The translations under genes and the position numbers were made by a program. Positions 1,050 to 17,864 of a stretch of 64,000 bases of DNA are shown here, piece by piece (the stretch's first letter is position 1; every line of letters starts with the position of its first letter). Source of the stretch: Saprospiraceae bacterium. Its GTDB lineage: Bacteria; Bacteroidota; Bacteroidia; Chitinophagales; Saprospiraceae. The stretch spans positions 1,266 to 65,265 of the forward strand of contig JAEUUO010000036.1 of the NCBI GenBank assembly GCA_016787575.1, in the 5' to 3' direction. The notes beneath the pieces were generated by a model, which was not told the origin of the DNA, made no database searches, and saw only the letters and a program-made list of their open reading frames with translations.

Positions 1050-1144
1050 CGATAACATGGTGCACATCGCAATACCGCTATTCATGTTCTCATTTCTTTT
1101 TATATTTACGGAGCGGCACTGCGTCTGCACCAAGACCGTTGGTG
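1050..1144 (+). repeat. integron attC site (short)
   Basis: CGATAAC-atggtgcacatcgc...agcggcactgcgtctgcacc-GTTGGTG. CGATAAC is the exact reverse complement of GTTATCG at 875-881. Confidence 0.7.
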
Positions 1145-1172
1145 GCAAGCTTAACAGACACATCCCATAAAA

Positions 1173-2288
1173 ATGACAAAGAGAATAAAAACTAAAACAG
1201 TATTCATAATAGGTGCAGGATTTTCAGTTGAAGCCAAAGCACCTTCTCAAGAAAAATTAGTGCAAAAAATATTTGAAGTTCATAAAACTAATCCTGATGT
1301 TTTTAAAGAAAATAGAATTAATGAATTTGTAGAATTTTTAAGCACGACACTTTGCATTCCAAGCGAATTACAGGAAACAATCCCACTTGAAGATATATTT
1401 ACACCATTAGATAGTTGTATTTCAAACAATGTTACTTTTAGAAATTTAGGTGTACAAGAAGTTGTACAAAAAAGAAAATTAGTATTTGAACTAATCGGTT
1501 TAACACTTCAATTTTTATTAGGAGATTCTGATAAGAAATACATTGATGATTTTGCAGAGTATGTTATAAAAGCATCAAAAGTTAGACAAGGAACATACCG
1601 AACAATTGACCCAGTTTCAATTATTAGCACAAATTGGGATATTCTATTAGACAATTCTCTATATAACAAAATAATAAACCAAACTGATTTAGGGGTTGTT
1701 GATTATTGTTGTTATATAAGCTCATATGAAAAAGATGATGATTCCGTAAAGCCAGGGCTTGAAATATTGGGCAAAGGAGGTTTTAATGTAAAACTATTAA
1801 AACTTCATGGCTCTTTGAATTGGTTACAATGCCCTAAATGCCAAAGGATTTATGTAAAGTTTAATGAGAAAATTGCAATGAACCCTTATGCAAATATTGA
1901 TCATCCTACTTGTAGGCATTGTGATGCTAATTATGGCAAACAAAAATCACATAATCTTGTAGCCAATCTGATAATGCCAACATTCTTGAAAGACCTCTCT
2001 AATCCACAATTTAAAATCATTTGGCAGAACGCAGGAATTGAACTATCCGAAGCAAAAAAAATAGTTTTTATTGGTTATTCTTTACCTCAAGCCGACTTTG
2101 AAATGAGACAATTATTATCAAGAATGGTTGACGTGGATACAGAAATTGAAGTAGTAAATTTTAAGGACAATAATAATCCGAAAGTATATGAAGACTTAAT
2201 AAAAAATTACAGACAATTTTTTGGTAGAAGTGTCACAGATTTTAAAGACGGAACTAGAAAATATATAGAGCAACTACTAAAAGAATGA
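1173..2288 (+). CDS. SIR2-family (SIR2_2-like) NAD-binding protein with zinc-ribbon insert; single-gene cassette
   Basis: N-terminal FIIGAGFS, STNWD (TTNYD-like), LKLHGS catalytic-His motif, CPKC...CRHC zinc module, FIGYSLPQAD. Confidence 0.75.
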   Translation: MTKRIKTKTVFIIGAGFSVEAKAPSQEKLVQKIFEVHKTNPDVFKENRINEFVEFLSTTLCIPSELQETIPLEDIFTPLDSCISNNVTFRNLGVQEVVQKRKLVFELIGLTLQFLLGDSDKKYIDDFAEYVIKASKVRQGTYRTIDPVSIISTNWDILLDNSLYNKIINQTDLGVVDYCCYISSYEKDDDSVKPGLEILGKGGFNVKLLKLHGSLNWLQCPKCQRIYVKFNEKIAMNPYANIDHPTCRHCDANYGKQKSHNLVANLIMPTFLKDLSNPQFKIIWQNAGIELSEAKKIVFIGYSLPQADFEMRQLLSRMVDVDTEIEVVNFKDNNNPKVYEDLIKNYRQFFGRSVTDFKDGTRKYIEQLLKE

Positions 2289-2296
2289 AAGCCAGC

Positions 2297-2421
2297 CACC
2301 AACATTATATTGCCTCCATGCCACTTGATGATTTTTCTTTCACGCTTGACAGAAAATTTTTAACTTAGCTTTTGTATAACAGCCGGGGGAGTGGCACGGC
2401 GGCAATACGGATACGTTAGCG
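2297..2421 (+). repeat. integron attC site
   Basis: CACCAAC-attatattgcctccatgccact ... agtggcacggcggcaatacggatac-GTTAGCG. CACCAAC is the exact reverse complement of GTTGGTG at 1138-1144. Confidence 0.8.
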
Positions 2422-2441
2422 GTAATATCAAATCGACAATT

Positions 2442-3965
2442 ATGACAATAGAGCAATTTATAAATAATTTAGGATTTGAAATAAATCCATTTCAATATTC
2501 CAATGCGGATAAAGAAGTTGAGTATTTGGATTCGTATTTTATCAAACCTGATTATTTTGAAGATGTTTGGGGTAATCCGTATAATCCTGTATCTAACATT
2601 GTTTATGCCCCAAGAGGCGGTGGAAAAACTGCTCAAAGAATAATGATTGAAAAACGGGCTAAAGAATCAAAAGACATTCTCGCAATAACTTATACAAATC
2701 ATGACCTTTCAGAATTCAAAAAAATCGAGGACATCAACTTACATTATCATCTAACTTACTTAAATAGACTTCTATTAGTTGCATTTTTCAACAGAATAAA
2801 TGACACTTCATTTGACTTCAATTTCACTTTTAATTTTTCAGAGCGACAATATATTTACAAACTAGCACGCATTTATTTGTTTGATACTCCAGCATCTTTC
2901 CCAAATCAGGCAATTCAATCTCTGAAAACATTAGAGGATTATGCAGTTGATTTATGGAAAGGATTTAAGGAGCCAATAACAAATGTTATAAAACAGATTT
3001 CAAAAAGTAAAGGGCTCGAAGTTGACCTTTCCAAAATTGAAATTGATAAAAAACTAGAGTTAAGCCATAAAAACAACACTTTCAATATAATTCAACTACT
3101 AAAAAAATCAGGGTATAATTCTATTTATATACTTGTGGACAAAGTTGATGAACAAAACTTAACTGGAAATAATCCATCAGCAAGCTTCTCACTAATATCA
3201 GATCTTATCAAAGACCTTGAGTTATTAGAAACTCCCAATCTTAGCTTTAAATTTTTCTTATGGGATGCATTAAAGCCATTTGCAGTTGAAGCTGCTCGTC
3301 CCGACAGAGTATTCTCTTATGACTTAAGGTGGACTTGGATTCAAATCATTGAGATGTTATCAAAGAGGTCAGAAGCATACAGTAGAGGTAAAATCAAAAA
3401 TTTTGAATCTTTGTTTGAAAATAGAAAATCTCTTGGTAGAATTGTTCTGTTTTCAGAGTTGTCACCACGTGATTGTGTTAGAATTTGTAACAGAATACTC
3501 TCGGAACAATTCAAAGAAAATCCTAACTCTCTTAAATTTAGTGAATCGGTTGTAGATAGATCAATCGAACAATTTTGTAGGGAGAAAGCACAAGAACTAA
3601 TAGTGAATGCAACTAACCTTAAACACTTAACTAAAACTAACAGTGTTTCATTTACGATTGAAGAGCTTGTAGCAGCTAAAGTTGCGGCAGACTCTCCTGC
3701 AATTAGAAATATTATAAATCCATGGACGACCGCAGGTTATCTAAAAAAAATTGGACTTGTTGAAAGGAAAAATGCCAAATCTGTAAATGAATATGCCTAC
3801 CAGGACATTCGACTTGCATTTATGGCGACACCTACATTAAGCCTTGACCAATTTATAAAAGAAAAAGTTAGACGTTGTAAAACTGACACTTGTAAAACAT
3901 TTTACTACCGTGATTTTGATAGGAAACCTTATGATTGCCCTGAATGCAATACTGAAAATGAATAA
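2442..3965 (+). CDS. P-loop NTPase with C-terminal zinc ribbon, function unknown; single-gene cassette
   Basis: Walker A APRGGGKT (2613-2630), Walker B-like YILVDKVDE, C-terminal CKTDTC...CPEC. Start moved to ATG 2442 because the tracked GTG start at 2391 lies inside the attC. Confidence 0.6.
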   Translation: MTIEQFINNLGFEINPFQYSNADKEVEYLDSYFIKPDYFEDVWGNPYNPVSNIVYAPRGGGKTAQRIMIEKRAKESKDILAITYTNHDLSEFKKIEDINLHYHLTYLNRLLLVAFFNRINDTSFDFNFTFNFSERQYIYKLARIYLFDTPASFPNQAIQSLKTLEDYAVDLWKGFKEPITNVIKQISKSKGLEVDLSKIEIDKKLELSHKNNTFNIIQLLKKSGYNSIYILVDKVDEQNLTGNNPSASFSLISDLIKDLELLETPNLSFKFFLWDALKPFAVEAARPDRVFSYDLRWTWIQIIEMLSKRSEAYSRGKIKNFESLFENRKSLGRIVLFSELSPRDCVRICNRILSEQFKENPNSLKFSESVVDRSIEQFCREKAQELIVNATNLKHLTKTNSVSFTIEELVAAKVAADSPAIRNIINPWTTAGYLKKIGLVERKNAKSVNEYAYQDIRLAFMATPTLSLDQFIKEKVRRCKTDTCKTFYYRDFDRKPYDCPECNTENE

Positions 3966-3971
3966 TACTAC

Positions 3972-4103
3972 CGCTAACAGCCGTTTTGCAAAAGCGGGGG
4001 TTTCGTGCTTCTATGAAAGTGAAGTGTTAAATTCAAGTTTTGTGCATTTAATGAAGTTTAGTGCTAAAAATCCCCGCCTTCGCAAAGCGGCAAACCGTTA
4101 GGT
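3972..4103 (+). repeat. integron attC site (132-bp GC-rich-arm family)
   Basis: CGCTAAC-agccgttttgcaaaagcggggg ... aatccccgccttcgcaaagcggcaaacc-GTTAGGT. CGCTAAC is the exact reverse complement of GTTAGCG at 2415-2421. Confidence 0.85.
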
Positions 4104-4119
4104 GCAATTTTAAGATATT

Positions 4120-6003
4120 TTGAAAAGTAAAATACCAATATCAATAAGTCACTCAAATCTCCTTGAAGAATGGGACTATAGTTTAAACGAAAGACATCCT
4201 AATGACTTTACTAAAGGATCCAATTTTAAAGCGTTTTGGAAATGTAAAAAAAATCATTCATGGCAAGCTGCTATTTATTCAAGAACAAATGGACATGGCT
4301 GTCCATTTTGTAGATCCAGCACTTCACTGAATGAAATGACTATTTTTTCTGAATTAAGTTATGTTTTTCAAAATTCAATTCATAGGTATATAAAGGGAAA
4401 AAATGAAATTGACATTTTTTTACCGGATGTAGGTATCGGTGTTGAATATGATGGATTGAGGTGGCATATCGAGAATGACCAAAAAGACAGAAATAAAAAT
4501 CTATTCTTTCAAAGAAAAGGTATAAAAATTATCAGAATTAGACAGAAAGGGTTGCCCAAAATAACCGATGACGACATTATAGTTGAAAAGAAAATTGATA
4601 CTAAAGAAGTTATAAATGATTTACTAAAAATAATCTTGAAAACTGGTCAAGCGAAAGCTTATCAATCAAAAATTCTAGAATACATCAAACTTGATGGTGT
4701 AGCGAATGATTCAAAATATCAAGAATTATTAGCTTATCACCCATTTCCTTTCAAAGGAAGAAGTTTGGAAGATAAATTTCCAGCATTATCAGCAGAATGG
4801 GATACTAGTAAAAATAAAAATCTAACACCTAATCATTTCTATCCAAAATCAGCCACTAATGTCTGGTGGAAATGTTCAATGGGGCATGAATGGCTGGCAA
4901 GAATTTCACACCGAGTAAGTGGTAGTGGTTGCCCAATTTGTTCAGGTCGTGTTGCTGGATCAGAAAATAATCTCTCAGTTATTAATTTGGTATTAGCGAA
5001 GGAATGGCATTATCAAAAAAACAAACTGCTGCCTTATGATTACTTACCCAACTCAGGTAAAAAAGTCTGGTGGAAATGTACAAAAGGACATGAATGGCAG
5101 GCGACTATAGCTAGTCGTAACTCCAATGGCGCAGGCTGCCCTTTCTGTTCTGGCAATGATATAGAAGAATCTGATAGTATCTTTTACAATAAGGTAATAA
5201 TGTCAATTTGGAACTTTGAAAAAAACAATTCAATAAATCCAAAGAAACTGAGTAAAAATTCGAATAAAAAAGTTTGGTGGAAGTGTAAAAATAATCACGA
5301 GTGGGAATCAATAATTGCAAATATTTCTAAAGGAAGTGGTTGTCCATTCTGCAGTGGACATAAACCAACATATGAAACTTCATTTGGAAATAATCATCCT
5401 GATTTACTGAAGGAATGGGATTACTCAAAAAATGACAATAGTCCTTTCGATATAAGTTGCCAATCAAAGAAAAAAGTTTGGTGGAAATGTAATGATCAAC
5501 ACCAATGGCAAACTACAGTACAGAATAGAACTAAAGGCTCAAGATGTCCTTATTGTACCAATAAAATTGTACTAATAGCTAAATCTCTTTATACATTAGA
5601 GCCGGAATTAATGAAAGAATGGGATTTTAGTAAAAATCATAAAGTAGACCCAAAAACAATTAGCCTTGGTTCTGGACTTAAAGCCTGGTGGATTTGTAAA
5701 AATGGTCATTCATGGGAAGCATCAATTTATCATCGCACAAAAAACAAATCTGGATGTCCTTTTTGTTCTAACAAGAAAATTTCAATAGAAAATTCTATTG
5801 TGACTAAATATCCACAATTAATGAAGGAATGGGACTTTAAGTTAAATTCAGAGATTAAACCTGAGATGTATTCGCATGGTTCTACAAAAAAAGTTTGGTG
5901 GAAATGCGCTAAAGGACATAGTTGGCTTGCATCAATTGGGAAAAGAACGAGTGGCAGAAGTTGTCCGGAGTGTTATAAATTGAAAAGGAAAAACAGCACC
6001 TAA
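4120..6003 (+). CDS. seven-repeat treble-clef zinc-ribbon protein (DUF4379-like) with embedded Vsr/DUF559-like PD-(D/E)xK endonuclease domain
   Basis: Seven repeats of about 52 aa: EW(D/N)..KN....(V/A)WWKC..GH.W...I..R..G.GCP.C. EIDIFLPDVGIGVEYDGLRWH...IKIIRIR lies between repeats 1 and 2. TTG start. Confidence 0.7.
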   Translation: MKSKIPISISHSNLLEEWDYSLNERHPNDFTKGSNFKAFWKCKKNHSWQAAIYSRTNGHGCPFCRSSTSLNEMTIFSELSYVFQNSIHRYIKGKNEIDIFLPDVGIGVEYDGLRWHIENDQKDRNKNLFFQRKGIKIIRIRQKGLPKITDDDIIVEKKIDTKEVINDLLKIILKTGQAKAYQSKILEYIKLDGVANDSKYQELLAYHPFPFKGRSLEDKFPALSAEWDTSKNKNLTPNHFYPKSATNVWWKCSMGHEWLARISHRVSGSGCPICSGRVAGSENNLSVINLVLAKEWHYQKNKLLPYDYLPNSGKKVWWKCTKGHEWQATIASRNSNGAGCPFCSGNDIEESDSIFYNKVIMSIWNFEKNNSINPKKLSKNSNKKVWWKCKNNHEWESIIANISKGSGCPFCSGHKPTYETSFGNNHPDLLKEWDYSKNDNSPFDISCQSKKKVWWKCNDQHQWQTTVQNRTKGSRCPYCTNKIVLIAKSLYTLEPELMKEWDFSKNHKVDPKTISLGSGLKAWWICKNGHSWEASIYHRTKNKSGCPFCSNKKISIENSIVTKYPQLMKEWDFKLNSEIKPEMYSHGSTKKVWWKCAKGHSWLASIGKRTSGRSCPECYKLKRKNST

Positions 6004-6129
6004 CAACGGTTTTGTGTTATGGGGGCTGTCGTGCTTGGCAGAAACATTTGTGCAAGGCTCAACATTTGTACTTCGTATGAACAGTAGTGCTAAAAATCCC
6101 CCACAACGCAAAGCCGCAAACCGTTATGC
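5998..6129 (+). repeat. integron attC site (132-bp family)
   Basis: ACCTAAC...GTTATGC. ACCTAAC is the exact reverse complement of GTTAGGT at 4097-4103. The arms closely resemble the site at 3972-4103. The ORF stop TAA lies inside the opening core. Confidence 0.85.
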
Positions 6130-6166
6130 ACAAGTGTAGACAGACTTCAATTAAAATTAATAAGAC

Positions 6167-8308
6167 ATGAAAATCAGGCAAATCATAGATAAAATTGACG
6201 AGAACCAACTTTTTGTACCTGCATTCCAAAGAGAATATGTTTGGAAAAGGAATGATGCGAAAAATCTAATTTCTTCACTAATCAAAGATTATCCCACAGG
6301 AACAATGCTAACTTGGGAAACGAACAAACCACCAGAACTAAAAGGCAAATTCAAATATGATGAAAATAAAGGTGCGGTAAAAATAATTCTTGACGGACAA
6401 CAGCGCATTACGACACTATATATGCTAATGCAAGGTGACATTCCTCCATATTATAATGAAAATGAAATAGAAAACGATATTAGAAATTTATACGTAAATG
6501 TTGAATCGCTTGAACTGGAGTATTATAAAGTTAAAATGATGGAAAACAATCCACTTTGGGTGAATATTACAGATATTTTTAAAGGCAAAGTGAGAGAAAG
6601 AGATATAACAGATGAGTTAGAAAGAAGAAACAATGGGGAAAGATTACCAAGAGAAAGAGAAACACTTATTTCAAATAATATCAGATCAATTGAACGAATT
6701 GAAGACAGAGACTTTCTGGAACAGATAATTCCTGTAAAAGCAACAATTAAAGAAGCCATTGACATTTTTTATATTGTCAATGCAAGTGGGGTAAACTTGA
6801 CAGATGCAGAATTGGCCTTAGCTCAAATATCTGGCTATTGGCCAAATGCAAGAGATTTATTCAAGAAAAAATTACAGGAACTAGAAAAACAAGGCTGGGT
6901 TTTTAAACTGGATTTTATTGTGTATGCATTGTTGGCAGTTACACATAAAATGGGTTCCAAAATGGAAAAACTTCACACTGCAGATAACAAGGATAAGTTA
7001 ATGGCGGCATGGAAAAAACTTGACGATACTGTTCTCGACTACGTTTGCAATCTATTACAAAGTCAAGCATTTATTGACCATACTGATGAAATTAACTCAA
7101 TTTATGCACTTATTCCTTTAATTTCATACACTTTCAATAAACCTGACAGTAAACTGAATGAAGAAGAAATAAAGAAATCAATTAAGTGGTTTTACTATTC
7201 TCAAATACGATTTAGATATATAAGTCAGTTGCCGCAAAAATTAGATAAAGACATAGGTATAATTAATGACAATCTCAATCCCTTCGACACACTGCTTGCA
7301 CTAATCGACGAAGAACGGCCCTTAGAAATCAAGTCATCAGAATTTATTGGAAGAGACATACGCCACCCTTTATTTTCATTAATGAAATGGTATTTTAAAA
7401 GCAAAGGTGCTGTTTGTTTGGGGACCGGCCTGTCGCTTCGTAAAAATATGGGTAAAAAGTATAGTCTGGAAAGAGACCATATTTTCGCATACTCCGTTCT
7501 TAGGGATTCCGGTATTTACGACATGGAAAATCAATTCCATTACGCTATAGCACAAGAGATTACTAACCGTGCAATTCTAACATCAACTGAAAATCGGGAA
7601 AAGTCAGCTATGTTTGCTGATGTTTATTTATCTAATGTGAGAAAATTATTTCCAAATGCTTTGAAGTTACAAAGCATTCCAGAAGATGAAAATCTCTGGA
7701 AGGTAGAGAATTACGAAAGGTTCCTTGAAGCAAGAAGAGAAACGCTTGCTAAGGAATTGAATTATTTTCTACAAACTATTTCCATTGGGCAAGTAACAGT
7801 TTCAACATCTGTCGATTTGCTTGACATGATAGCATCTGGAGAGCATGGTTTTTTAGAATTCAAGTCAACTATGCGATGGAATTGGAAAGAGAACCGTCTT
7901 GACAAAAAGATGGAAGAGATCATTTTAAAAACTATTTCAGCATTTAGTAATGCCGAAGGTGGAAAACTGCTTATAGGAGTTACAGACGAAGGAGAAATAC
8001 TTGGACTCGAATCTGATTACAATACATTCAAGGAAGCTAATAAAGACCATTTTGAATTACACCTAAGAAATATAATCAACAATGCCTTTGGCAAAGAGTT
8101 CGGTGCAATTTATTTGAATGTCCGTTTTCCAATAGTGAATGATATAGAAATATGTGAAATAGATATCAAAGCGGCAAAGACACCTCTCTATTGTGAAATT
8201 GCTGACAAAAATGGAGCATCTCAAAAGAAATTTTATATCCGTAGTGGTAATTCATCGCAAGAGCTGGACATTGAAGAAACAGCGTCATACATTAAGAAAA
8301 GATTTTGA
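6167..8308 (+). CDS. GmrSD-like DUF262 (ParB-like) + His-Me/DUF1524-like nuclease fused to a C-terminal AlbA_2/Schlafen-like domain
   Basis: FQREYVW and DGQQR (6392-6406) are DUF262 motifs. ERDHIF...NRAILTSTENREKS is HNH-like. The C-terminal GEHGFLEFKS...FSNAEGGKLLIGVTDEGEILG resembles the AlbA_2/Schlafen fold. Confidence 0.7.
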   Translation: MKIRQIIDKIDENQLFVPAFQREYVWKRNDAKNLISSLIKDYPTGTMLTWETNKPPELKGKFKYDENKGAVKIILDGQQRITTLYMLMQGDIPPYYNENEIENDIRNLYVNVESLELEYYKVKMMENNPLWVNITDIFKGKVRERDITDELERRNNGERLPRERETLISNNIRSIERIEDRDFLEQIIPVKATIKEAIDIFYIVNASGVNLTDAELALAQISGYWPNARDLFKKKLQELEKQGWVFKLDFIVYALLAVTHKMGSKMEKLHTADNKDKLMAAWKKLDDTVLDYVCNLLQSQAFIDHTDEINSIYALIPLISYTFNKPDSKLNEEEIKKSIKWFYYSQIRFRYISQLPQKLDKDIGIINDNLNPFDTLLALIDEERPLEIKSSEFIGRDIRHPLFSLMKWYFKSKGAVCLGTGLSLRKNMGKKYSLERDHIFAYSVLRDSGIYDMENQFHYAIAQEITNRAILTSTENREKSAMFADVYLSNVRKLFPNALKLQSIPEDENLWKVENYERFLEARRETLAKELNYFLQTISIGQVTVSTSVDLLDMIASGEHGFLEFKSTMRWNWKENRLDKKMEEIILKTISAFSNAEGGKLLIGVTDEGEILGLESDYNTFKEANKDHFELHLRNIINNAFGKEFGAIYLNVRFPIVNDIEICEIDIKAAKTPLYCEIADKNGASQKKFYIRSGNSSQELDIEETASYIKKRF

Positions 8309-8345
8309 TGTTAAATCCGAAAGCGATTACAGCCAATAAACCTGT

Positions 8346-8477
8346 GCATAACAGCACCTACCCAAAAGACGGGGTTTTGTGCTCCAAAGACAGATTTGTG
8401 GTAAAAGGAATATTTGTACTATTAATCAACATTTGTGGTGAATCCCCCGCCCTTCGGGTAGCCGCAAAACGCTAGTG
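8346..8477 (+). repeat. integron attC site (132-bp family)
   Basis: GCATAAC...aatcccccgcccttcgggtagccgcaaaac-GCTAGTG. GCATAAC is the exact reverse complement of GTTATGC at 6123-6129. The closing core has C in place of the second T. Confidence 0.75.
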
Positions 8478-8487
8478 GCCATGCAAG

Positions 8488-8934
8488 ATGATAAAAGCTA
8501 TGCTTAATAGAATTGTGATCTCGATAATAATAATAATTATGTCATTAAGTTGCTCAAGGAATGATTATAGTGGAATTTATACACGACCGAGACATGTTAA
8601 ACTTTTAGGAGAAGGAATAACAATATTTAAAGACAGTTCGTATTCATACTTTTTTTCTGGCGGTGATTATCCAAGTATTATAGATAAAAAGGGGAATTAT
8701 AAAATGTTTAATAATAAACTAATCATATTTCATTCAGATAGCATAAGAGATTCAGAAATATCTCTTTACAGAGTGGATAGTTATTCCATAACTGATACTT
8801 ATTACATTCTAAAAATTGATCAAGAATGTATTTTGTATAACAATACAAAATGTTTTATGAAATTGAGGACGAACGGAAAGCTTGATGAATCGAAATATCA
8901 AAAAATCTGTAGAGCTGCAAAGCACGGTCACTAA
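8488..8934 (+). CDS. small hypothetical lipoprotein (cassette)
   Basis: Signal peptide with lipobox-like MSLSC. No recognisable domain. Confidence 0.5.
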   Translation: MIKAMLNRIVISIIIIIMSLSCSRNDYSGIYTRPRHVKLLGEGITIFKDSSYSYFFSGGDYPSIIDKKGNYKMFNNKLIIFHSDSIRDSEISLYRVDSYSITDTYYILKIDQECILYNNTKCFMKLRTNGKLDESKYQKICRAAKHGH

Positions 8935-9060
8935 CATGGTATACACTTAGTTCCACAAGAAAATTTAATTTTTCACTCTTGGCTTTCAATGTAAAATCTA
9001 TCTCCTTATCTTTGGCTTTCTCCCGTTAGCGGGACTGCGTGTATACCAAAACCGTTATGT
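8929..9060 (+). repeat. integron attC site (long AT-rich-centre family)
   Basis: CACTAAC-atggtatacac ... gggactgcgtgtatacc-aaaacc-GTTATGT. The opening core matches 6/7 the reverse complement of GCTAGTG at 8471-8477. Confidence 0.8.
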
Positions 9061-9079
9061 AGCATAAAAACATATAATA

Positions 9080-10259: not shown

Positions 10260-10277
10260 TAAAGCGGCGCATAACAG

Positions 10278-11992
10278 GATGTGAAAAAACTACTTTCAAT
10301 TTAATTCAACAATTTCTTGTATATTTTAATTTGATATTGTATTTTTATGTTATATGAATCATATAACAGGTATGCCAAGATTACAAATGCAGATGAGTTC
10401 ATTGGAAGATTCCATTGACCAGGAAAACCCGGTAAGATTTATCGATGCATTTGTAGATCAATTAGATTTATTAAAGATTGGATTTGAAGTAAAAACGTTA
10501 AAAACAGAAGGCCGCCCTAGTTTTGAAGCTTCTACCTTACTTAAAATATATTTATATGGTTACTTAAATGGTTTGCGGAGTAGCCGCAGACTAGAAAGTG
10601 AATGTATTAGAAATATTGAACTACAATGGTTAACCTTGGGATTACAGCCAAATTATCATACCATCTCTGATTTTAGAAAAGACAATCCAAAAGCTTTAAA
10701 AAATGTTTTCAAATTATTTGTTTCATTTCTTAAAGACATTGATTTGATTGGTAGTCAAATTATTGCCATTGATGGGACTAAGTCAAGAGCTCACAACAGC
10801 AAAAAGAATAATTACAATCAAAAGAAAATTGATAGGCACTTAGCTTATATTGAGGAAAAGAGTAATGAATATCTTATTCAATTGGAGGATAATGATATAA
10901 AGGATGATTTAACAAAAGTCTTGAATATCCAGGAAAAAATAAATAGACTTAAACAGAATAAAATTAAGTATGAAGTTCTGCAAGAAAAACTAATAGATTC
11001 TGACGAACCACAAATAAGCACCACGGATCCAGACTCCCGTGCCCTGCTTGTCCATGGACAGGTTGTTGAAGTTTGTTACAATATCCAAACTGCAGTTGAT
11101 GATAAACATAAACTAGTTGTGGCAACTCATACGATTAATCGGAATGACCGTAATGCACTCACAGATATTGCATTAGAAGTAAAAGCAAATTTGAATGCGG
11201 ATGGTTTTGTGGCATTACTGGATAAAGGATATCACAATGGTAGAGAAATTCAGCAATGTACGGATGCCAATATTGATACAATTGCAGCCCCATCACTTAT
11301 TGTCAATAGCAATACATATGGAACAACACCGGAATATGTGGTAACTAATTTTGTTTATAATTATAAACTTGATACGTACACTTGCCCGCAAGGCAAAACA
11401 TTGAACACAACTGGAACATGGCACACTAAAACAAAGGATAACCATTCAGGTTATAAATTTAAAAAATACAGAACTCCTGAGTGCAAAACATGTCCAGCAA
11501 AACACCTTTGCACCAGAAGAGCGAGCGGAGGACGAGAAATAGAAAGAAGTGAATTTGCAACCGCAGTAGAAGCAAACAATACGCGCTACAAAGAAAATGC
11601 CGCATTGTATCGTAAAAGACAAGAAATTAACGAACATATCTTCGGAACAATAAAAAGGAAATGGGGATATTACTACACCAATCTAAAAGGACTAGATAAA
11701 GTCAACGGGGAGCACAGTTTAATTATGCTGGCTTATAATATTAAACGATGCTTTGCATTACCTGGCGTTCCAGAACTTACTGAGAAATTAAAAAATTGGG
11801 CTTCTCCTTACAAGAAAGACCCTGCTTTTCTTCAAAATTGGATTGATTTAAGACCTTTAGAACTCCTGGTGTTTAATCGGACTATTACGCTCTTTAAAAA
11901 ATGCATCGCATGTAACTCATAAAACTGGTTTATATGAGAACATACAATGAATTTTTAAAATTTTGAATATAAAAAATGGTATTTTCACACTC
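10278..11992 (+). mobile_element. IS1182-family (IS5-like DDE) insertion sequence, about 1.7 kb
   Basis: Imperfect terminal inverted repeats GATGTGAAAAAAC... and ...GTATTTTCACACTC, with similarity extending about 45 bp inward. Carries a single transposase ORF. Boundaries are approximate. Confidence 0.65.
10354..11922 (+). CDS. IS1182-family DDE transposase
   Basis: N-terminal FIDAFVDQLDL...RPSF...LLKIYLYGYLNGLRSSRRLE...TISDFRK (DUF772-type). DDE region AIDGTK...LLDKGY. C-terminal cysteine cluster and ...EHIFGTIKR. Confidence 0.85.
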   Translation: MNHITGMPRLQMQMSSLEDSIDQENPVRFIDAFVDQLDLLKIGFEVKTLKTEGRPSFEASTLLKIYLYGYLNGLRSSRRLESECIRNIELQWLTLGLQPNYHTISDFRKDNPKALKNVFKLFVSFLKDIDLIGSQIIAIDGTKSRAHNSKKNNYNQKKIDRHLAYIEEKSNEYLIQLEDNDIKDDLTKVLNIQEKINRLKQNKIKYEVLQEKLIDSDEPQISTTDPDSRALLVHGQVVEVCYNIQTAVDDKHKLVVATHTINRNDRNALTDIALEVKANLNADGFVALLDKGYHNGREIQQCTDANIDTIAAPSLIVNSNTYGTTPEYVVTNFVYNYKLDTYTCPQGKTLNTTGTWHTKTKDNHSGYKFKKYRTPECKTCPAKHLCTRRASGGREIERSEFATAVEANNTRYKENAALYRKRQEINEHIFGTIKRKWGYYYTNLKGLDKVNGEHSLIMLAYNIKRCFALPGVPELTEKLKNWASPYKKDPAFLQNWIDLRPLELLVFNRTITLFKKCIACNS

Positions 11993-12058
11993 TGACGTTT
12001 ATGGTAAGGCGAGAGTTAGTATTCTTTTGAATTTATTCAAACAAAATTTATATCAATA

Positions 12059-15000
12059 ATGAAAGAAGTTAGACAAGACGACATAGAGATTTATTTAGCA
12101 AATGCAGAAAAGCCAATAGCATATTCAAATTATTCTTATCCCATTAATAAGCTAGATGATAGAGTATATGAAGTTTTGACATATTCAATTTTCAAAAAAA
12201 GAATTGCCACAAATGATGCAGGAATTAGTGAGAAGCATTCTAATGTGATTCTGATGCAAGGTATTGGTGAAAAAGGGATGGATTGTATACTTACCTATGA
12301 GAATAGAATAAATGGAGTTATTCAATGTAAAAAGTATTCTAAAAATTTGACTGACACTCAAATATTAACGGAACTTATAAAGTTTGCAATTCACTTTTCT
12401 ATTGATAGTACAAGATTTACTCAAAGCAACAAATTAAAATATTTCTTTGCAACTTCAACAGGTTATACTGCAAAAGCAATTCAACTTATTGAGCTGATTA
12501 AAGACAAATCATTCCAGAGTAAATATGATTATATAAAAATAGTTACATCTATTATTGGAAAATATAAAGAGTTCAAGAATCTGAAATTAATAAGGTTGCA
12601 AGCTGAAATACCAAATATTTTGTCTAATTTTGAATATGAACTAATAAGACCTGATGATTATAACCTTTGGATAAATACCTATCCTGAAATTATTAATACA
12701 TTTTTTGAAGTAAAAAAAGTTACGGATAATTCTCTGATAGAAGAGAAAGGGAATGAGATTTTGAATAAAATTGAAACTCTGTTTTCAGTAAAAGAATCAG
12801 AAGTTATTGATTCTTTTATCAAGAAATACAAAGCTGTTGCTGTTGAGAAGCTAAATCTTGTAAATTTTATTGGTTTTGATTTACACAGATATAGGCAAAA
12901 ACCAGCAGAAATAACATTGACAGAATTATTTGTTATGCCTTCTTTTATTCAAAGAATAAGCGATAAAAATAAAAAAGTTCTAAGTATTGTTGATAAAGAC
13001 TTAAAAGTTGCAAATGTTTTTAAGTCGGATAAAAATATAATCCTTCTTGGAGATCCAGGTGCTGGTAAATCATTACTTGTTAAATTTATTATAGTACAAA
13101 TTTTAAATGGAGCTGAAGATAAAATTGGTCTAAAGCAATTTGGCCATGCCATTCCATTTAGAATAGAATTAAGGAAATACAATGAGGTTCGAGAAAGTAA
13201 AAGTGTTATTGAGTATTTGTCCGATCTACTTGATAAAGAGTATCAAACTGCTATTGGTATTGATATGTTAAGTAAATTAATTCATAATTATGAGTCAATT
13301 GTCTTTTTTGATGGATTAGATGAGATATTTAATGCAACCCATAAAAATAAAATGAAAGAATGCATTGAATTGTTTAGTATTAACTTTCCGAAGTCAAAAA
13401 GTGTAGTAACCTCTAGATTTATTGGTTATCATGATATTAATTTTAATCCTAAGAAGTTTGATGAATTTGCCATTCAGCGTTTTAATCAAAGTCAAATAGA
13501 AGAATTAATAGCAAAATTTTATGCGACTCAAATTTCAAATATTGATAAAAGGCGCATATCAATAGTAAATTGCATTTCGCAAATCGAAAAAGAAGTTGAC
13601 AACGATTTAAAGAGCAACCCACTTATAATGACTCTGATTCTAATTCTTACGAGTAACAATATTATTATTCCGGATTCTAAGCTAGAAATTTATGAAGCAT
13701 GTACCAAGACATTAGTAGATAGTATTGATACTAGAGAGAAAGAATTGAAGATAGAAATGCCAGTAAAAAATAAGCGACTCACATTTGCTCACTTAGCATA
13801 TTGGCAATATGAATCACTTAGTAAGAATTCAAAAATTTCCTATGATAGAGCTGTTAAAGCAATATCAGATTTTCTAATTGATAAAAAAGAAGTTTTAGAT
13901 ATTACAGAAGCAGAGGATAAGGCCAAAAAATTCCTGGATTATGCTGAAAAGCGATCAATATACTTTGAAGATAACTTCACTCATAAAACATTTTTAGAAT
14001 ATTATACCGCAGACTACCTGTATATAAATTTTTTTACGAAAGCAAATGATCAAGCAAGAAAGAAGGTAATTTCTATTATCACTAATTATCTTCCAAAGGC
14101 ATTTTGGTATATCGTTTTTGAGTTGCTATTAACTAGAATAGATAAAGAACAGGCAGACTCTGAATTGTTGGATGAAATATTTTCAAAGCAAATTGAATCC
14201 AATTCTCTTAATGTTTTTTATTTTTTAATTAGTAATTTAACTAAATTTATAAATATTAGTAATGAAATAAAATCGAAAATAATTAAGAAAACTATATTGC
14301 TATGTATCAAAGGAGAAAAGGTATCAGAACTTAGACATGGTTATCATTTTGAAGAAAATAGTTTATTAGCGAAGATAAATTACTTACAAAAGGATGATAG
14401 TTTATTCGATATATTCCAAGCAGCTATCTATGAATTTGAAGATGATGGCCTAGATGATAGAGATTTAATTGAATTTTACATATTTTATTATGAGGTAGTC
14501 TCCTTAAATTTTAAAATGAAGTATGAAAATTCTTTAAAAATTAAAAACAAAAGGAAGCTTAAGGAGCTTAGTTATAAAGACCTTCACTTGTTCTGTCAAT
14601 CTATCGTTCCAAGAAAAAACAAAGATGAAGTGATTTCCATTAATGTGCTTTTGGATCAGATAGAACATTTTGGCACTAAAAGTTTATTTAAAAATTTAAA
14701 ATTTCGTCATCGAGATAATGTATTTAGAATTGATACATTTGATATTTATCTTATGAGTGTAATTGAAAATTTAGATTATGAGGCATTTCAGGAAGATTAT
14801 TTTAAACTTTTAAAAGCTGGTTTAAGACATGACCAGATATTGGATCATGTAAAATCTTCAAAATTATTTTTCTTTCATAGAGGAGAAGGTTTTGAGAAAC
14901 TTCTTAATTTCTTTTTAAAATCTAACAATAAGGAACTAGATGACATTATACTTGGGCTTGTGAGAAATATTGGTGAAATGAGAATTACTTACGAAAAATT

Positions 15001-15061
15001 TAGAGAGACCAATTCTAATTCAAAGCTTAGAATCATAGACAAAATATTTAAGAGGAAATAG
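12059..15061 (+). CDS. NACHT-family STAND NTPase with N-terminal Mrr-like PD-(D/E)xK nuclease domain and large helical C-terminal region (Avs/bNACHT-like)
   Basis: YEVLTYSIF...GEKGMDCIL...GVIQCKKY (D...QxK nuclease motif). Walker A LLGDPGAGKS (13049-13072). Walker B IVFFDGLDE. About 550 aa of C-terminal alpha-helical sequence. Confidence 0.75.
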   Translation: MKEVRQDDIEIYLANAEKPIAYSNYSYPINKLDDRVYEVLTYSIFKKRIATNDAGISEKHSNVILMQGIGEKGMDCILTYENRINGVIQCKKYSKNLTDTQILTELIKFAIHFSIDSTRFTQSNKLKYFFATSTGYTAKAIQLIELIKDKSFQSKYDYIKIVTSIIGKYKEFKNLKLIRLQAEIPNILSNFEYELIRPDDYNLWINTYPEIINTFFEVKKVTDNSLIEEKGNEILNKIETLFSVKESEVIDSFIKKYKAVAVEKLNLVNFIGFDLHRYRQKPAEITLTELFVMPSFIQRISDKNKKVLSIVDKDLKVANVFKSDKNIILLGDPGAGKSLLVKFIIVQILNGAEDKIGLKQFGHAIPFRIELRKYNEVRESKSVIEYLSDLLDKEYQTAIGIDMLSKLIHNYESIVFFDGLDEIFNATHKNKMKECIELFSINFPKSKSVVTSRFIGYHDINFNPKKFDEFAIQRFNQSQIEELIAKFYATQISNIDKRRISIVNCISQIEKEVDNDLKSNPLIMTLILILTSNNIIIPDSKLEIYEACTKTLVDSIDTREKELKIEMPVKNKRLTFAHLAYWQYESLSKNSKISYDRAVKAISDFLIDKKEVLDITEAEDKAKKFLDYAEKRSIYFEDNFTHKTFLEYYTADYLYINFFTKANDQARKKVISIITNYLPKAFWYIVFELLLTRIDKEQADSELLDEIFSKQIESNSLNVFYFLISNLTKFINISNEIKSKIIKKTILLCIKGEKVSELRHGYHFEENSLLAKINYLQKDDSLFDIFQAAIYEFEDDGLDDRDLIEFYIFYYEVVSLNFKMKYENSLKIKNKRKLKELSYKDLHLFCQSIVPRKNKDEVISINVLLDQIEHFGTKSLFKNLKFRHRDNVFRIDTFDIYLMSVIENLDYEAFQEDYFKLLKAGLRHDQILDHVKSSKLFFFHRGEGFEKLLNFFLKSNNKELDDIILGLVRNIGEMRITYEKFRETNSNSKLRIIDKIFKRK

Positions 15062-15067
15062 CCCTGA

Positions 15068-15198
15068 TATCAACTGAGTACTTACGATCATGGCGCAAAT
15101 AAGCTTTAATTTTCACTTTTAGCTTTTAATGAAATAATATTTCTTACTTTTGGATTTGGTGCTAGTGGCGGCCCGTCGCAATTGCCTGGCCGTTATAG
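15068..15198 (+). repeat. integron attC site (long AT-rich-centre family); opening core uncertain
   Basis: ...TATCAAC-tgag-TACTTAC-gatcatggcgc ... ggcggcccgtcgcaattgcctggcc-GTTATAG. The centre is typical (aattttcacttttagc...atttcttacttttgg). Confidence 0.6.
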
Positions 15199-15223
15199 GT
15201 CATAATAGCAAATTAGAATTAAA

Positions 15224-15829
15224 TTGAGAAATGTAATTTTATTTATACTAATTATTTTGAATTGTAACTGTAGGATAGAATCTAATTATGAAGAAGGACT
15301 TAAAAATTGTTTAAATAATTTTGCTTGAGCAAAGAAACTCGGTTCAAATGCAAGCATGTCGATTGGGCCAGATTGTTTGATTGGTGCTAGAGTTCCTGAT
15401 TTTAAGGTAGAACTTATTGATGGAAGTAAATATTCAAACGAAAACCTAAAGGGTAAAGTTAGTGTTATTAATTTTTGGTTTATTGACTGTCCGCCTTGTG
15501 TTGCAGAAATTAATGGCTTAAATAGTTTGGTTGAATTATTTGGAAAAGATAAAATAAATTATGTTGCATTTGGAAGAGATCCAAAAAGTGATATAGAATC
15601 ATTTTTAAAAAATCATGTTTGGAATTATAACCACATTTCTGGTGAAAATAATATTATTGATACTATTTTTAAACTGTATTGGGGTTATCCAGCAACTTTT
15701 ATTTTGAATAAACAAACAGAAATAATTTATACTGCTTCTGGTGGCAAATCAGATTCAACTGCAAGCGAAGAATTACTAAATAAACTTATTCCGATCCTAA
15801 AGAATGCAGAGGAAAATGACGACCTATAA
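15224..15829 (+). pseudogene. TlpA/thioredoxin-like lipoprotein reading frame interrupted by an in-frame TGA (15326-15328)
   Basis: TTG at 15224 opens LRNVILFILIILNCNC... (signal plus lipobox) in the same frame as the 15356 ORF. A single TGA separates them. Confidence 0.45.
15356..15829 (+). CDS. thioredoxin-fold thiol:disulfide oxidoreductase (TlpA/ResA-like), as tracked from the internal ATG
   Basis: VPDFKVELIDG...LKGKVSVINFWFIDCPPCVAE contains a CxxC motif. Confidence 0.7.
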   Translation: MSIGPDCLIGARVPDFKVELIDGSKYSNENLKGKVSVINFWFIDCPPCVAEINGLNSLVELFGKDKINYVAFGRDPKSDIESFLKNHVWNYNHISGENNIIDTIFKLYWGYPATFILNKQTEIIYTASGGKSDSTASEELLNKLIPILKNAEENDDL

Positions 15830-15953
15830 CTTCGTACTTGCGATAATGCCGTCAAGCACCAGATATTTTCACTTTTGGCATGAATTGAAAAACTATTTTC
15901 TATATTTGGTATAATTGGAATGGTTGCACATCGCAAGTATTTCATCGTTGACT
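15824..15953 (+). repeat. integron attC site
   Basis: CTATAAC-ttcgtacttgcgat...atcgcaagtatttcatc-GTTGACT. CTATAAC is the exact reverse complement of GTTATAG at 15192-15198. The ORF stop lies inside the core. Confidence 0.8.
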
Positions 15954-15978
15954 GCATTTGTAAAACATAATTTAGACA

Positions 15979-16896
15979 ATGGGAAGAACAAGTAAACGAC
16001 TTTTAATTGGAGCATCAAGTCCTGTTGGATATTTCTATGAATATGATAGAGTGAAAATTCATGGAAAACCAGCCCCTATTTTGGAAACACCATTAAGCTA
16101 CTGTTTGCTTTATGACGAAATCTGGTTTCTTAGTAGAAAGGTATGTCCTCACAATATGGAGAATTTAAGTTTTGTCCATTTTGTTGACGAAGACTTAATG
16201 CCCAAAGGGCTTCCTTTAGATTTCGCAAAAGACCAAAATCTCAATCCTTTTGGAGAATTCCCTTGGGAATCATGGAAAGATGTGATTAAAAGGACAATTG
16301 GTCTAAGATGGAGTTATGACAACCATTCAAGTAATATGCAATTTGGGGAACTGCGAATGACACCAACACCTGGAAATTATTTGAATTTGCTAGTAGATAG
16401 ATATGTTGCAGCAATGCATGAAATGGATTTAGTAGAAAACTCTGCAAATTTGTTTTGGAGTCAAGAAGTTGACAATGTACAATTGAAATTAAGTATAAGT
16501 GAAAAACTATTAACATCATCAATCGTATCTTTGCAAACTATTAATGGGCCATGGCATCCTGAAATACATAATTTAAGAGAAGATAGTTTATTAAAAAAGT
16601 ATCGTCAGAAAATACAAGACGTCTCAGTTAATGAAATTAATGACGTTGATAAAAGAATTGGTGAATTGTCAAAAGAGTTTGAAAAAATATCACTAAAAAT
16701 AGTTTCTGAGCAATTTGAAACTACTGGACTTTTTACAGGAACAGCAATGTTTTTAGTGGGATTAATACCTACAATTGGAAATATAATTGGTGGTGGGCAA
16801 GTTCTAAATGATATCTATTCAAACATAAAATTAAGAGAACAAAAAGGCTGGGTTGGATTCTTGGGTAGAGCTAAAAGTTCATTAACAGAATTGTGA
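15979..16896 (+). CDS. hypothetical protein with C-terminal glycine-zipper TM helix (cassette)
   Basis: No recognisable domain. C-terminal GLFTGTAMFLVGLIPTIGNIIGGG. Confidence 0.5.
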   Translation: MGRTSKRLLIGASSPVGYFYEYDRVKIHGKPAPILETPLSYCLLYDEIWFLSRKVCPHNMENLSFVHFVDEDLMPKGLPLDFAKDQNLNPFGEFPWESWKDVIKRTIGLRWSYDNHSSNMQFGELRMTPTPGNYLNLLVDRYVAAMHEMDLVENSANLFWSQEVDNVQLKLSISEKLLTSSIVSLQTINGPWHPEIHNLREDSLLKKYRQKIQDVSVNEINDVDKRIGELSKEFEKISLKIVSEQFETTGLFTGTAMFLVGLIPTIGNIIGGGQVLNDIYSNIKLREQKGWVGFLGRAKSSLTEL

Positions 16897-16906
16897 AAAT
16901 AACTGC

Positions 16907-17036
16907 AGTCAACAATGTACTTACAGACATGCCATCTAAAAATTTAGTTTTCACTTTTGACTTAGATTGAAAATACAATTTCTTACTTTTGCCTTCTGGA
17001 CAAGTAGCGGCGCGGCGCAAGTACATAGCGTTATGA
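16907..17036 (+). repeat. integron attC site
   Basis: AGTCAAC-aatgtacttac...gcgcaagtacatagc-GTTATGA. AGTCAAC is the exact reverse complement of GTTGACT at 15947-15953. Confidence 0.8.
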
Positions 17037-17716
17037 CGACAAACCAAACTTCAATATCAACTTATCACGAATATATTCTTGAAGCAATTTATGCTTTGCG
17101 ATACGGACTAGCTTATTATGAAATTGCAAAGCAAATTCCAGCTGACACAGGTTCGGACCAATCAATGCTAATTGCAGAAATAAATAGCCGTTATTCATTT
17201 CTAATGATTTCAAACTCGCTTGAATCAGCAGCAAACGCCTTACTTCTTAGTCTAAACCTAGACAAAGAATATTACGCAGAATTAGAACGGACAAGCACTT
17301 TAGTTAAGTTTAAAATATTCTGTGACTTTTTAGGCAAGCGCCTTGACCAAGGTGATATTAAGTTTGGTAGAATTAAGGATATAATCAACTGTAGAAATGA
17401 ATTTGTTCATCCTAAACCAAGAAAAGCAACTTACCGAATAGACAATTTTAATTCAGAAATTAAGTTTGAGGTCAAATCGACAAAAAACCGAAACTATCCG
17501 GCCTATTTTAGTGAAATAAAGCCTACCCATGTATTGACAGCTTTGGAAGACACTTTGATTTTTATTTCTTGGATTTGTTTTGACATTTGTAAGTTAGAGA
17601 TTCAAGATGGAGCCTTTAAGCTTGGTTTTGGTTCGTACGGTAGCACCGGAGACATAGACAATATTGGTGAAGATTACGAAATTAAATTTGATAAACGGAC
17701 TTTTGGACAGCAATGA
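17033..17716 (+). CDS. hypothetical alpha-helical protein with HEPN-type Rx4H motif (candidate RNase; cassette)
   Basis: CRNEFVHPK (R121-H126, nt 17393-17410) in a predicted helical context. Start moved to the ATG that overlaps the attC closing core (gttATGa). Confidence 0.5.
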   Translation: MTTNQTSISTYHEYILEAIYALRYGLAYYEIAKQIPADTGSDQSMLIAEINSRYSFLMISNSLESAANALLLSLNLDKEYYAELERTSTLVKFKIFCDFLGKRLDQGDIKFGRIKDIINCRNEFVHPKPRKATYRIDNFNSEIKFEVKSTKNRNYPAYFSEIKPTHVLTALEDTLIFISWICFDICKLEIQDGAFKLGFGSYGSTGDIDNIGEDYEIKFDKRTFGQQ

Positions 17717-17864
17717 GTAATATTGGCATTAAGACACGTTTGGCGTCATGTGGATTGACATGGTTACATTCAAGTTCAGTTTTCCAAGTTGGCTTTTGTG
17801 CTGGTTTGTCAGCTTTGTGCTCCGAATATCCGCCGAATGCCAAACGCCAAAACGTTCGTTATCG
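17689..17864 (+). repeat. integron attC site (two possible registers for the opening core: 17689 or 17727)
   Basis: TGATAAAC-ggacttttgg...ttggcatt (or GCATTAAG-acacgtttggcg) pairs with aatgccaaacgccaaaacgttc-GTTATCG at 17836-17864. Confidence 0.55.

Follow-up and report, generated by a model that had tools for sequence, protein, structure and literature searches.

The cassette array and its attC sites

The first part of the window (the whole 64,000-nucleotide stretch of DNA analysed here), from position 1 to ~19,690, is a co-oriented run of 16 attC-bounded gene cassettes in a Saprospiraceae (Bacteroidota) genome from activated sludge (wastewater). All 15 open reading frames (ORFs) of at least 100 aa in the first 19.7 kb lie on the + strand, and the G+C content of the array is 0.28-0.35, compared with 0.35-0.41 across the rest of the window. 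Thirteen cassettes hold a single ORF, one holds two, and two are ORF-less. Six of the 14 cassette ORFs are immune-type genes, which cover 10,353 of the 16,720 bases of the interval 1139-17858 (62%). A preliminary description of this DNA had placed an array of compact, mostly single-gene, defence-like cassettes in that interval. All six ORFs that it named are present, and its limits, 1139 and 17858, are both exact cassette boundaries at G|TT (the bar marks the junction); the array is a genuine integron-type array with an unusually large immune-type share. Its features are given here, with the complementarity between R'' and R', which is explained below, expressed in positions out of seven.

Partial first cassette, + strand: closed by attC1 (314-451; type 1; R'' at 316, R' GTTGTAT at 445)
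446-875 and 876-1138, + strand: two ORF-less cassettes, with attC2 (786-881) and attC3 (1049-1144)
1139-2415, + strand: cassette 4, SIR2-only; ORF 1173-2288, 371 aa; attC4 2296-2421; complementarity 6/7
2416-4097, + strand: cassette 5, DS-41 P-loop ATPase; ORF 2442-3965, 507 aa; attC5 3970-4103; complementarity 7/7
4098-6123, + strand: cassette 6, zinc ribbon/Vsr; ORF 4120-6003, 627 aa; attC6 5996-6129
6124-8471, + strand: cassette 7, GmrSD-Schlafen; ORF 6167-8308, 713 aa; attC7 8344-8477; complementarity 7/7
8472-9054, + strand: cassette 8, 148-aa protein
9055-9802, + strand: cassette 9, 215-aa protein
9803-11997, + strand: cassette 10, 121-aa protein, with an insertion sequence (IS) inside attC10; R'' complementarity 7/7
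11998-15192, + strand: cassette 11, Mrr-NACHT; ORF 12059-15061, 1000 aa; attC11 15067-15198, decayed; complementarity 3/7
15193-15947, + strand: cassette 12, AhpC/TSA redoxin (AhpC-TSA, E 3e-17); ORF 15356-15829; complementarity 7/7
15948-17030, + strand: cassette 13, 305-aa protein; ORF 15979-16896; complementarity 7/7
17031-17858, + strand: cassette 14, HEPN-like; ORF 17033-17716, 227 aa; degenerate attC at ~17726-17864
17859-19161, + strand: cassette 15, 173-aa and 181-aa ORFs; degenerate attC15
19162 to ~19689, + strand: cassette 16, 106-aa protein, array end; degenerate attC16

The intergenic regions contain imperfect inverted repeats that open with ...AAC and close with GTT.... Nineteen of these sites, from the window and one related contig, align on a common plan with loops of 70-139 nt, and RNAalifold recovered the inner stem with compensatory changes in nine of its ten pairs. 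Using a covariance model built from 13 attC sites and run unfiltered on both strands of the window, we obtained matches confined to the + strand and to positions 314-19172, and nothing significant in the other 44 kb. The score of attC1 was 108.8 bits, attC1 itself being a training sequence. Among the sites held out of the training set, attC3 (1048-1148) scored 35.9 bits (E 6.5e-7), attC2 (785-884) 26 bits (E 2.4e-4) and attC15 (19045-19172) 19.9 bits (E 0.0085); weaker held-out sites were found at E 0.18 and E 1.3, the latter being attC16 (11.5 bits). The same lineage-trained model misses the clear attCs of a locus in a Chitinophagaceae metagenome-assembled genome (MAG), so its negatives in distant genomes are uninformative.

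Integron recombination splits the R' box at G|TT. Whatever follows a GTT is thus part of the next cassette, and should complement the R'' of that cassette's attC and not the R'' of the site itself. In adjacent pairs, R'' and R' were complementary at a mean of 5.47 of the 7 variable positions, compared with 2.41 of 7 for non-adjacent pairs. At least five of the seven positions matched at 11 of the 15 junctions, including nine consecutive proximal junctions with 5-7 of 7, and seven junctions showed full complementarity; the four junctions that fail are distal. Only the excision and insertion of cassettes explains a pattern in which each site complements the next repeat and not its own. A strict regular-expression pairing of R'' and R' had returned zero sites, because each R' is part of the cassette that follows its site, and it was replaced by duplex scoring, the covariance model and the adjacent-complementarity test.

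These observations bear on the view that the locus is not an integron, but a defence island with unrelated intergenic repeats, such as hairpins resembling repetitive extragenic palindromes (REP) or miniature inverted-repeat transposable elements (MITE), or terminators. The DNA-folding z-scores of single sites, weak at -3.6 to +1.3, would fit such repeats, as would the failure to see an integrase. The weak scores are due to the long AT-rich loops, and in our analysis they were used neither for nor against attC identity. The conserved AAC...GTT ends, the bulged imperfect stems with their compensatory changes, the loop lengths, the complementarity of the post-GTT sequence to the start of the next repeat, and a breakpoint located exactly at G|TT in a related contig (see below) all argue against unrelated repeats, and make this view extremely improbable.

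The attCs of the window form two local sequence families. In the second, the loop carries three to four copies of TTTGTGC/TTTGTAC with a spacing of ~20 nt; its members are located at 3968-4107, 5996-6133 and 8344-8475 in the window and at 9575-9710 in the related contig L001, and these repeats could be a protein-binding array. Regarding the two ORF-less cassettes, no ORF of at least 60 aa was found within either of them (446-1138), and an Rfam scan of window positions 1-20100, which included them, matched zero families. The first of the two contains a strong hairpin with 28-nt arms at 542-615.

Six immune-type genes

The preliminary description had assigned a SIR2 domain to 1173-2288, a P-loop NTPase with a zinc ribbon to 2442-3965, multiple zinc ribbons with a Vsr-like nuclease to 4120-6003, DUF262/His-Me and Schlafen domains to 6167-8308, and an Mrr-like nuclease with a NACHT domain to 12059-15061. 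The profile, motif and structural matches described in this section agree with these five assignments, tentatively so for the His-Me part. For the sixth gene, 17033-17716, described as an Rx4H HEPN-motif protein, the motif was confirmed and the match to the HEPN fold is only suggestive.

The DS-41 family ATPase (2442-3965) is the clearest case. It scored 498 bits with the NCBIfam model NF053860 (DS41_1_antiphage), for which the equivalog cut-off is 370, over profile positions 1-448 of 448, and it also matched ATPase_Sll1717 (E 2.3e-46). It carries a Walker A motif (GGGKT, residue 59), a Walker B motif (LVDKVDE, 231) and a C-terminal CxxxxC...CxxC. By profile score it is an equivalog-level DS-41 member, a P-loop ATPase of the Sll1717 family, which places this one cassette in an anti-phage family with experimental validation. 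The DefensePredictor study validated 42 systems against E. coli phages, DS-41 among them; phage protection was demonstrated there for the E. coli representative only (PMC13092281). Unlike that protein, the window protein is a Bacteroidota cassette gene product, and it has a C-terminal zinc-ribbon extension past the end of the profile. Family members with 60-94% identity occur widely in Bacteroidota, the highest value being that to an Aquirufa protein.

The protein encoded at 6167-8308 matched GmrSD_N (E 4.3e-29) and SLFN_AlbA_2 (E 7e-18), both above threshold, and the PADLOC model HEC-05 (E 4.6e-46) over residues 2-537. In the PDB, it matched BrxU (7P9K, E 4e-14) and SLFN12 (E 1e-4). Like the GmrSD/BrxU type IV restriction enzymes and HEC-05, it has an N-terminal DUF262 domain with DGQQR (residue 76); a DH motif farther on (ERDHIF, residue 435) marks a putative His-Me-like region towards the C-terminus. 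It differs from GmrSD/BrxU in its additional C-terminal Schlafen/AlbA_2 domain (residues 560-700) and in the weak detection of GmrSD_C, which at E 0.07 is below threshold.

In the protein encoded at 12059-15061, the Pfam NACHT domain was detected with E 4.7e-8 (33.5 bits, cut-off 26.7), with a Walker A motif, GDPGAGKS, at residue 331 and FFDGLDE at 416 (DGLDE at 418). In its N-terminal 240 residues, D75 and Q89-C-K91 (D...QxK) are invariant, and Mrr_cat was matched by 18 of 20 family members (best E 4e-9). The predicted model of this region (predicted local distance difference test, pLDDT, 90.5) has a restriction-endonuclease fold, for which Foldseek returned as best neighbours Cap4 (probability 0.97), EcoT38I, AF1548, EndoMS and LmuA; PADLOC also gave LmuA (E 3e-6). 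The C-terminal ~500 residues are helical. For residues 500-1000, which are conserved in relatives, there was no Pfam match at E up to 10, and a PDB sequence search with the protein gave nothing useful. A layout of Mrr-like and NACHT domains is found in bNACHT25, a validated defence protein (Kibby et al.). The window protein shares with bNACHT25 and other bacterial NLR-like proteins the N-terminal Mrr-like effector, the central NACHT and a long C-terminal region; unlike in these proteins, no repeats or known sensor domain were recognised in its C-terminal 500 residues. Named NACHT defence models gave no significant sequence match, EruA matching only at the P-loop.

Thirteen PADLOC SIR2 and Aga_SIR2 models matched the protein encoded at 1173-2288 (best E 5.9e-10). 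Its catalytic motifs are intact, namely GAGFS at residue 14, TNWD at 153 with N154, and KLHGS at 210 with H212, and two CxxC pairs form a zinc site. The cluster of proteins with at least 90% identity to it includes a Chryseobacterium piscicola protein. Named SIR2 systems are defined by a partner or sensor, such as ThsB/SLOG, the long C-terminal region of DSR, HerA or Argonaute. In the SIR2 cassette there is no such defining partner or sensor, the 371-aa protein being the only ORF there, and the protein is thus not a member of Thoeris, DSR, SIR2-HerA or SPARSA; it is a streamlined variant.

The protein encoded at 4120-6003 consists of seven DUF4379 treble-clef zinc ribbons (E 4e-137) with a nuclease module embedded among them at residues ~72-140, which is kept in nearly all relatives. 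Among 24 relatives, this module matched MTES_1575 in 19 (best E 3.7e-10), DUF559 in 10 and Vsr in two, and the family profile of the module matched PDB 3R3P with E 2.7e-5. The window protein itself reached only E 9.4e-4, below threshold. Residues E72, D98, E109, D111 and H116 are invariant in the family, so that the module has the E...D...E-x-D-G...H core of the Vsr, DUF559 and MTES_1575 nucleases and of I-Bth0305I; its position between seven DUF4379 ribbons sets it apart from all of these. The architecture has no documented role in defence or repair, and we found no match to it in the defence libraries searched (PADLOC, NCBIfam).

The HEPN-like protein (17033-17716) has 115 homologues, none of which is annotated, and no Pfam, NCBIfam or PADLOC family matched it. 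The segment CRNEFVHPKP, and with it R121-N-E-F-V-H126, does not vary among 39 sequences with identities as low as 39%. Like the HepT RNase toxins of MntA-HepT pairs (7BXO, 5YEP), which rank top among its structural neighbours, the protein is helical in its predicted model (pLDDT 93.2) and has an invariant R-N-x-x-x-H. It differs from HepT in its length (227 aa compared with ~130 aa), in having no MNT antitoxin partner and in Foldseek E-values above 1. A Foldseek comparison of the model with viral structures gave nothing significant. Based on the motif, a HEPN assignment is plausible. A homologue is found as a cassette between clear attCs in the Chitinophagaceae MAG mentioned above (L022); at ~6900-7250 of that locus, upstream of a cassette ORF, there are ~15 tandem copies of a 22-nt unit, TTTAGACCGAGCGAGTTTCTA. 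In a Kapaibacterium genome (L020, 7400-11328), a tRNA gene lies just upstream of another homologue, whose neighbours are an AAA_15/21 ATPase and DUF4435 pair, the domain pair of PARIS; the locus resembles a small tRNA-associated defence island.

The preliminary description had also stated that several of these architectures match no named system. This holds for the zinc-ribbon/Vsr and HEPN-like (RNEFVH) families; DS-41, GmrSD/HEC-05 and the bNACHT25-type layout are named or validated. The PADLOC comparison that it had proposed returned matches for the SIR2, HEC-05 and LmuA models and left the zinc-ribbon/Vsr and HEPN-like proteins unmatched. These two proteins are candidate defence genes. As for the other cassette genes, the 305-aa protein of cassette 13 gave zero matches in the profile libraries searched. 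The 173-aa ORF of cassette 15 (17880-18401) has no match in Pfam, NCBIfam or PADLOC; its segment FREACNKIIHAKH resembles nuclease or HEPN-type motifs.

Cassette exchange, decay and the proposed defence-gene bank

A metagenome contig of 211,883 bp (ENA), L001, also encodes the SIR2 protein, at its end. This contig matches window positions 874-2562 at 99.94% identity, and the match opens at the G|TT of attC2 (874/875). Upstream of this breakpoint, L001 holds other cassettes, which encode two Por_Secre_tail proteins, a RelA_SpoT protein and a 242-aa protein. Shared cassettes at 99.94% identity with different upstream neighbours, joined at G|TT, point to a recent event of integrase type. The locus is occupied by other cassettes in two further contigs, L014 and L024, and the chromosomal end of the array has a different terminal cassette in another sample. 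L024 was also considered as a second clean G|TT breakpoint and was rejected, its break being ~9 nt past G|TT and accompanied by a small deletion.

Single cassettes were also found in more distant arrays. A different array, on a 2.06-Mb JGI contig (L019), contains a 96%-identical zinc-ribbon/Vsr gene that is flanked by two model-positive attCs and has P63C and a Gp49/HTH toxin-antitoxin pair as neighbours. For the DS-41 homologues of L003 and L005, from a Flavobacterium genome and a Bacteroidia MAG, the alignment with the window opens at 2415/2416, which is the cassette start, at loci that keep decayed attC remnants; in a Lentimicrobiaceae MAG (L004) the DS-41 homologue sits between attCs. Cassettes recur at 90-96% identity in different Bacteroidota classes, indicating that they are horizontally traded and are probably host-independent modules. 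The sister arrays contain further PADLOC matches: the RelA_SpoT protein of L001 (7652-8695) matched PDC-S33 (E 1.2e-15), and in L019 PD-Lambda-2_B-like (E 5e-22) and PD-T4-5/AbiD-like (E 2.5e-9) proteins are encoded at 7025-8239 and 9061-9732.

We propose, with a probability of roughly 0.7, that window positions 1 to ~19,690 are the distal part of a chromosomal integron-type array, either a cluster of attC sites lacking integron-integrases (CALIN) or the array of a sedentary integron, that works as a defence-gene bank. The six self-contained immune-type cassettes suggest this role. The unit of the array would be one promoter-poor ORF followed by an imperfect-hairpin attC and, following established integron biology, an IntI-type tyrosine recombinase encoded elsewhere would excise and insert such units at the G|TT of R'. 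Each of the six immune-type proteins, going by what is known of their families, would pair a toxic effector with a sensing or NTPase module. The minimal SIR2 protein would deplete NAD+, and the DS-41 P-loop ATPase would act by an ATP-dependent mechanism. The Vsr-like module on its seven zinc ribbons would nick or cleave DNA, and the GmrSD/BrxU-type nuclease fused to Schlafen would cleave modified DNA. In the Mrr-NACHT STAND protein, a phage cue would trigger oligomerisation, upon which the Mrr nuclease would cut DNA, as proposed for bNACHT25; the small HEPN-like putative RNase would cleave RNA. In this way, compact defence genes would enter and leave the array and be rearranged among strains as well as among Bacteroidota classes, with the proximal cassettes in flux and the distal block largely fixed, its attCs decaying.

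Several observations weigh against the defence-gene bank, and the first group of them concerns mobility. The distal block, which comprises the IS, the NACHT gene, the redoxin gene and the genes of the 305-, 227-, 173- and 181-aa proteins, is identical in eight metagenome contigs from different samples, and hence looks fixed. No tyrosine recombinase was found in the window, L001, L013 or L019 by phmmer, with IntI1 and XerD as queries. In L001, 440 nt of non-coding DNA separate the array start from unrelated genes upstream of it, and there is no integrase within 5.7 kb on that side. With no integron integrase visible, the array is CALIN-like in the terms of IntegronFinder. The tyrosine recombinases of L004 (7804-8718 and 11796-13862), considered as a divergent intI beside the DS-41 cassette, were rejected, as they lack the IntI-specific insertion (IntI1 residues ~190-257); they are two identical copies that flank the DS-41 homologue, and one of them runs into an IS91-like zinc-finger transposase ORF. 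Additionally, attC11, downstream of the NACHT gene, has a decayed stem that folding failed to recover. The attC that follows the HEPN-like gene (17725) has a local hairpin and scored 8.4 bits (E 8), which is not significant.

Two other sites are altered. The R' box of attC7 at 8471 reads GCTAGTG, not GTTAGTG, which would block recombination there and fuse cassettes 7 and 8. An IS1182-family element (transposase 10354-11922; transpos_IS1182, E 2.6e-99) interrupts the loop of attC10, the site upstream of the NACHT cassette; the arms of attC10, at 10267 and 11997, still pair across the element region (10267-12006). The preliminary view that each cassette is separately bounded by attC sites needs qualifying for attC7, attC10, attC11, the site after the HEPN-like gene and the last two sites of the array. 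Its further claim that each cassette can mobilise on its own was not sustained, given the absence of an integrase from the window and from the 5.7 kb upstream in L001, the degenerate or interrupted attCs of two of the six cassettes, and the identity of the distal block in the eight contigs.

All this raises the alternative that the locus is a fossil, that is, a decayed CALIN which is no longer recombined, with cassettes that are now fixed chromosomal genes and a library behaviour that is historical. The lack of an integrase at either array end, the degenerate attC11, attC14, attC15 and attC16, the GCT in attC7, the IS inside attC10 and the uniform distal block would all follow from such a history. 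It does not account for the nine consecutive proximal junctions that retain their complementarity, nor for the nearly identical cassettes that L001 joins at G|TT to different upstream neighbours, nor for the other cassette contents of L014 and L024. We consider the fossil unlikely; from the state of the sites, the proximal half of the array looks recombination-competent and the distal half decaying.

The second group of unfavourable observations concerns gene content. Eight cassette ORFs (those of 148, 215, 121, 305, 173, 181 and 106 aa, and the redoxin) gave no defence signal in profile searches with Pfam, NCBIfam and PADLOC. Pfam SIR2 scored 17.9 bits on 1173-2288, below threshold, and a PDB sequence search with the SIR2 protein gave no match. 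The zinc-ribbon/Vsr family is very large (~8,000 matches) and has no defence annotation, and the nearest solved relative of its nuclease module is the homing endonuclease I-Bth0305I (PDB 3R3P). For the HEPN-like protein, the top PDB neighbours are HepT HEPN toxins at E 1.3-4, with TM-scores of 0.53-0.59 normalised to the target.

These observations would suit an ordinary mixed accessory-gene array in which the defence-like genes are incidental, selfish or addiction modules and do not provide anti-phage immunity. Toxin-antitoxin cassettes stabilise the superintegrons of Vibrio, and a toxin-type HEPN or SIR2 protein could likewise stabilise this array, with the Vsr-like protein acting as a selfish nuclease resembling homing endonucleases. 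A mixed array would be in line with the eight of 14 cassette ORFs that lack a defence signal (the redoxin, secreted or membrane proteins, and unknowns), a selfish nuclease with the kinship to I-Bth0305I, and addiction with the HepT toxins of toxin-antitoxin pairs as best structural neighbours of the HEPN-like protein and with the Gp49/HTH pair in the L019 sister array. However, the SIR2 and HEPN-like cassettes are without an antitoxin partner, the DS-41 protein passes the equivalog cut-off of a validated anti-phage family, and the Mrr-NACHT and GmrSD architectures are validated defence types. Six immune-type genes of 14 would presumably also lie far above a genome-wide background of ~1.5% of genes. 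The mixed array is distinctly unlikely on this evidence, and the defence-gene bank remains the preferred reading.

Past the array end, homology with array-less or alternative contigs restarts at 19865. Immediately downstream, at 20063-26179, there is a biosynthetic-looking set of genes, which encode an AurF-like N-oxygenase, a FabH-like KAS III, an AMP-binding enzyme, an epimerase and a double short-chain dehydrogenase/reductase (SDR). Housekeeping proteins from 21-48 kb of the window share clusters of >=90% identity with Saprospiraceae MAG proteins, in agreement with the host named above. Farther along the chromosome, outside the array, a 660-aa protein (41180-43162, - strand) and a 1069-aa protein (45004-48213, - strand) belong to clusters at >=90% identity named 'caspase family protein' and 'CHAT domain-containing protein', respectively; to judge from these names, they may be another conflict-type pair.

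Relation to known integrons and biological meaning

Integrons as anti-phage libraries were published in 2025 by Darracq et al. and Kieffer et al. (Science) and by Getz et al. (Nat Microbiol). This work covers the sedentary integrons of Vibrio (V. cholerae and V. parahaemolyticus; Darracq, Getz) and the BRiC cassettes of mobile integrons (Kieffer). Integrons have also been recorded in Bacteroidota, where IntegronFinder 2 found almost none in complete genomes. The preliminary description had expected a repertoire of this kind in Bacteroidota to be new, an expectation that these publications overtake; of its interpretation overall, the nature of the array, its defence share and the exchange of cassettes were supported, and independent mobility, unnamed architectures and novelty were not, or were overstated.

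Like the sedentary integrons of Vibrio and the BRiC cassettes, the window array consists of co-oriented, attC-bounded, mostly single-gene compact defence cassettes. As in Vibrio integrons, its content varies between strains, and cassettes of unknown function stand alongside the defence genes. It differs from the Vibrio and mobile integrons in its host, which is a member of Saprospiraceae (Bacteroidota) and not of Gammaproteobacteria, and in that intI, attI and Pc are not seen; its attCs form two local sequence families that are unlike the Vibrio repeats. Its repertoire of DS-41, GmrSD-Schlafen, Mrr-NACHT, SIR2-only, zinc-ribbon/Vsr and HEPN-like genes is likewise different. The locus thus extends the integron-defence concept of 2025 to a new bacterial group, and the concept itself is unchanged.

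A bolder proposal with two parts, which we put forward tentatively and regard as somewhat improbable, concerns gene function and expression. In its first part, the zinc-ribbon/Vsr and RNEFVH families would each be a new anti-phage system that is encoded by a single gene and spreads among Bacteroidota as an integron cassette. In its second part, the type-1 attCs would carry a -7 box, so that deep cassettes would be transcribed from their own attC and not from a single Pc. The sequence TAnnTTTG, the Bacteroidota -7 promoter box, is located in the loops of the type-1 sites attC1, attC8, attC11, attC12 and attC13 (at 398, 9007, 15145, 15901 and 16984, respectively), facing the downstream gene, with five occurrences observed against 1.25 expected (P ~0.008). 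None was found on the opposite strand, and there is no -33 element at canonical spacing. The five attCs are mutually homologous and are therefore not independent observations, which makes the box a lead only; type-1 attCs may, on this motif, bear promoters. If true, attC-borne transcription would differ from the canonical model of integron expression.

The locus supplies compact candidates, namely the SIR2-only, GmrSD-Schlafen and Mrr-NACHT proteins and the zinc-ribbon/Vsr and RNEFVH families, and its cassette boundaries are exact cloning units. If the defence-gene bank is confirmed, the principle of the integron as a bank of defence genes would hold not only for Vibrio and clinical mobile integrons but also for environmental members of the Bacteroidota, a phylum whose integrons are barely catalogued in complete genomes.

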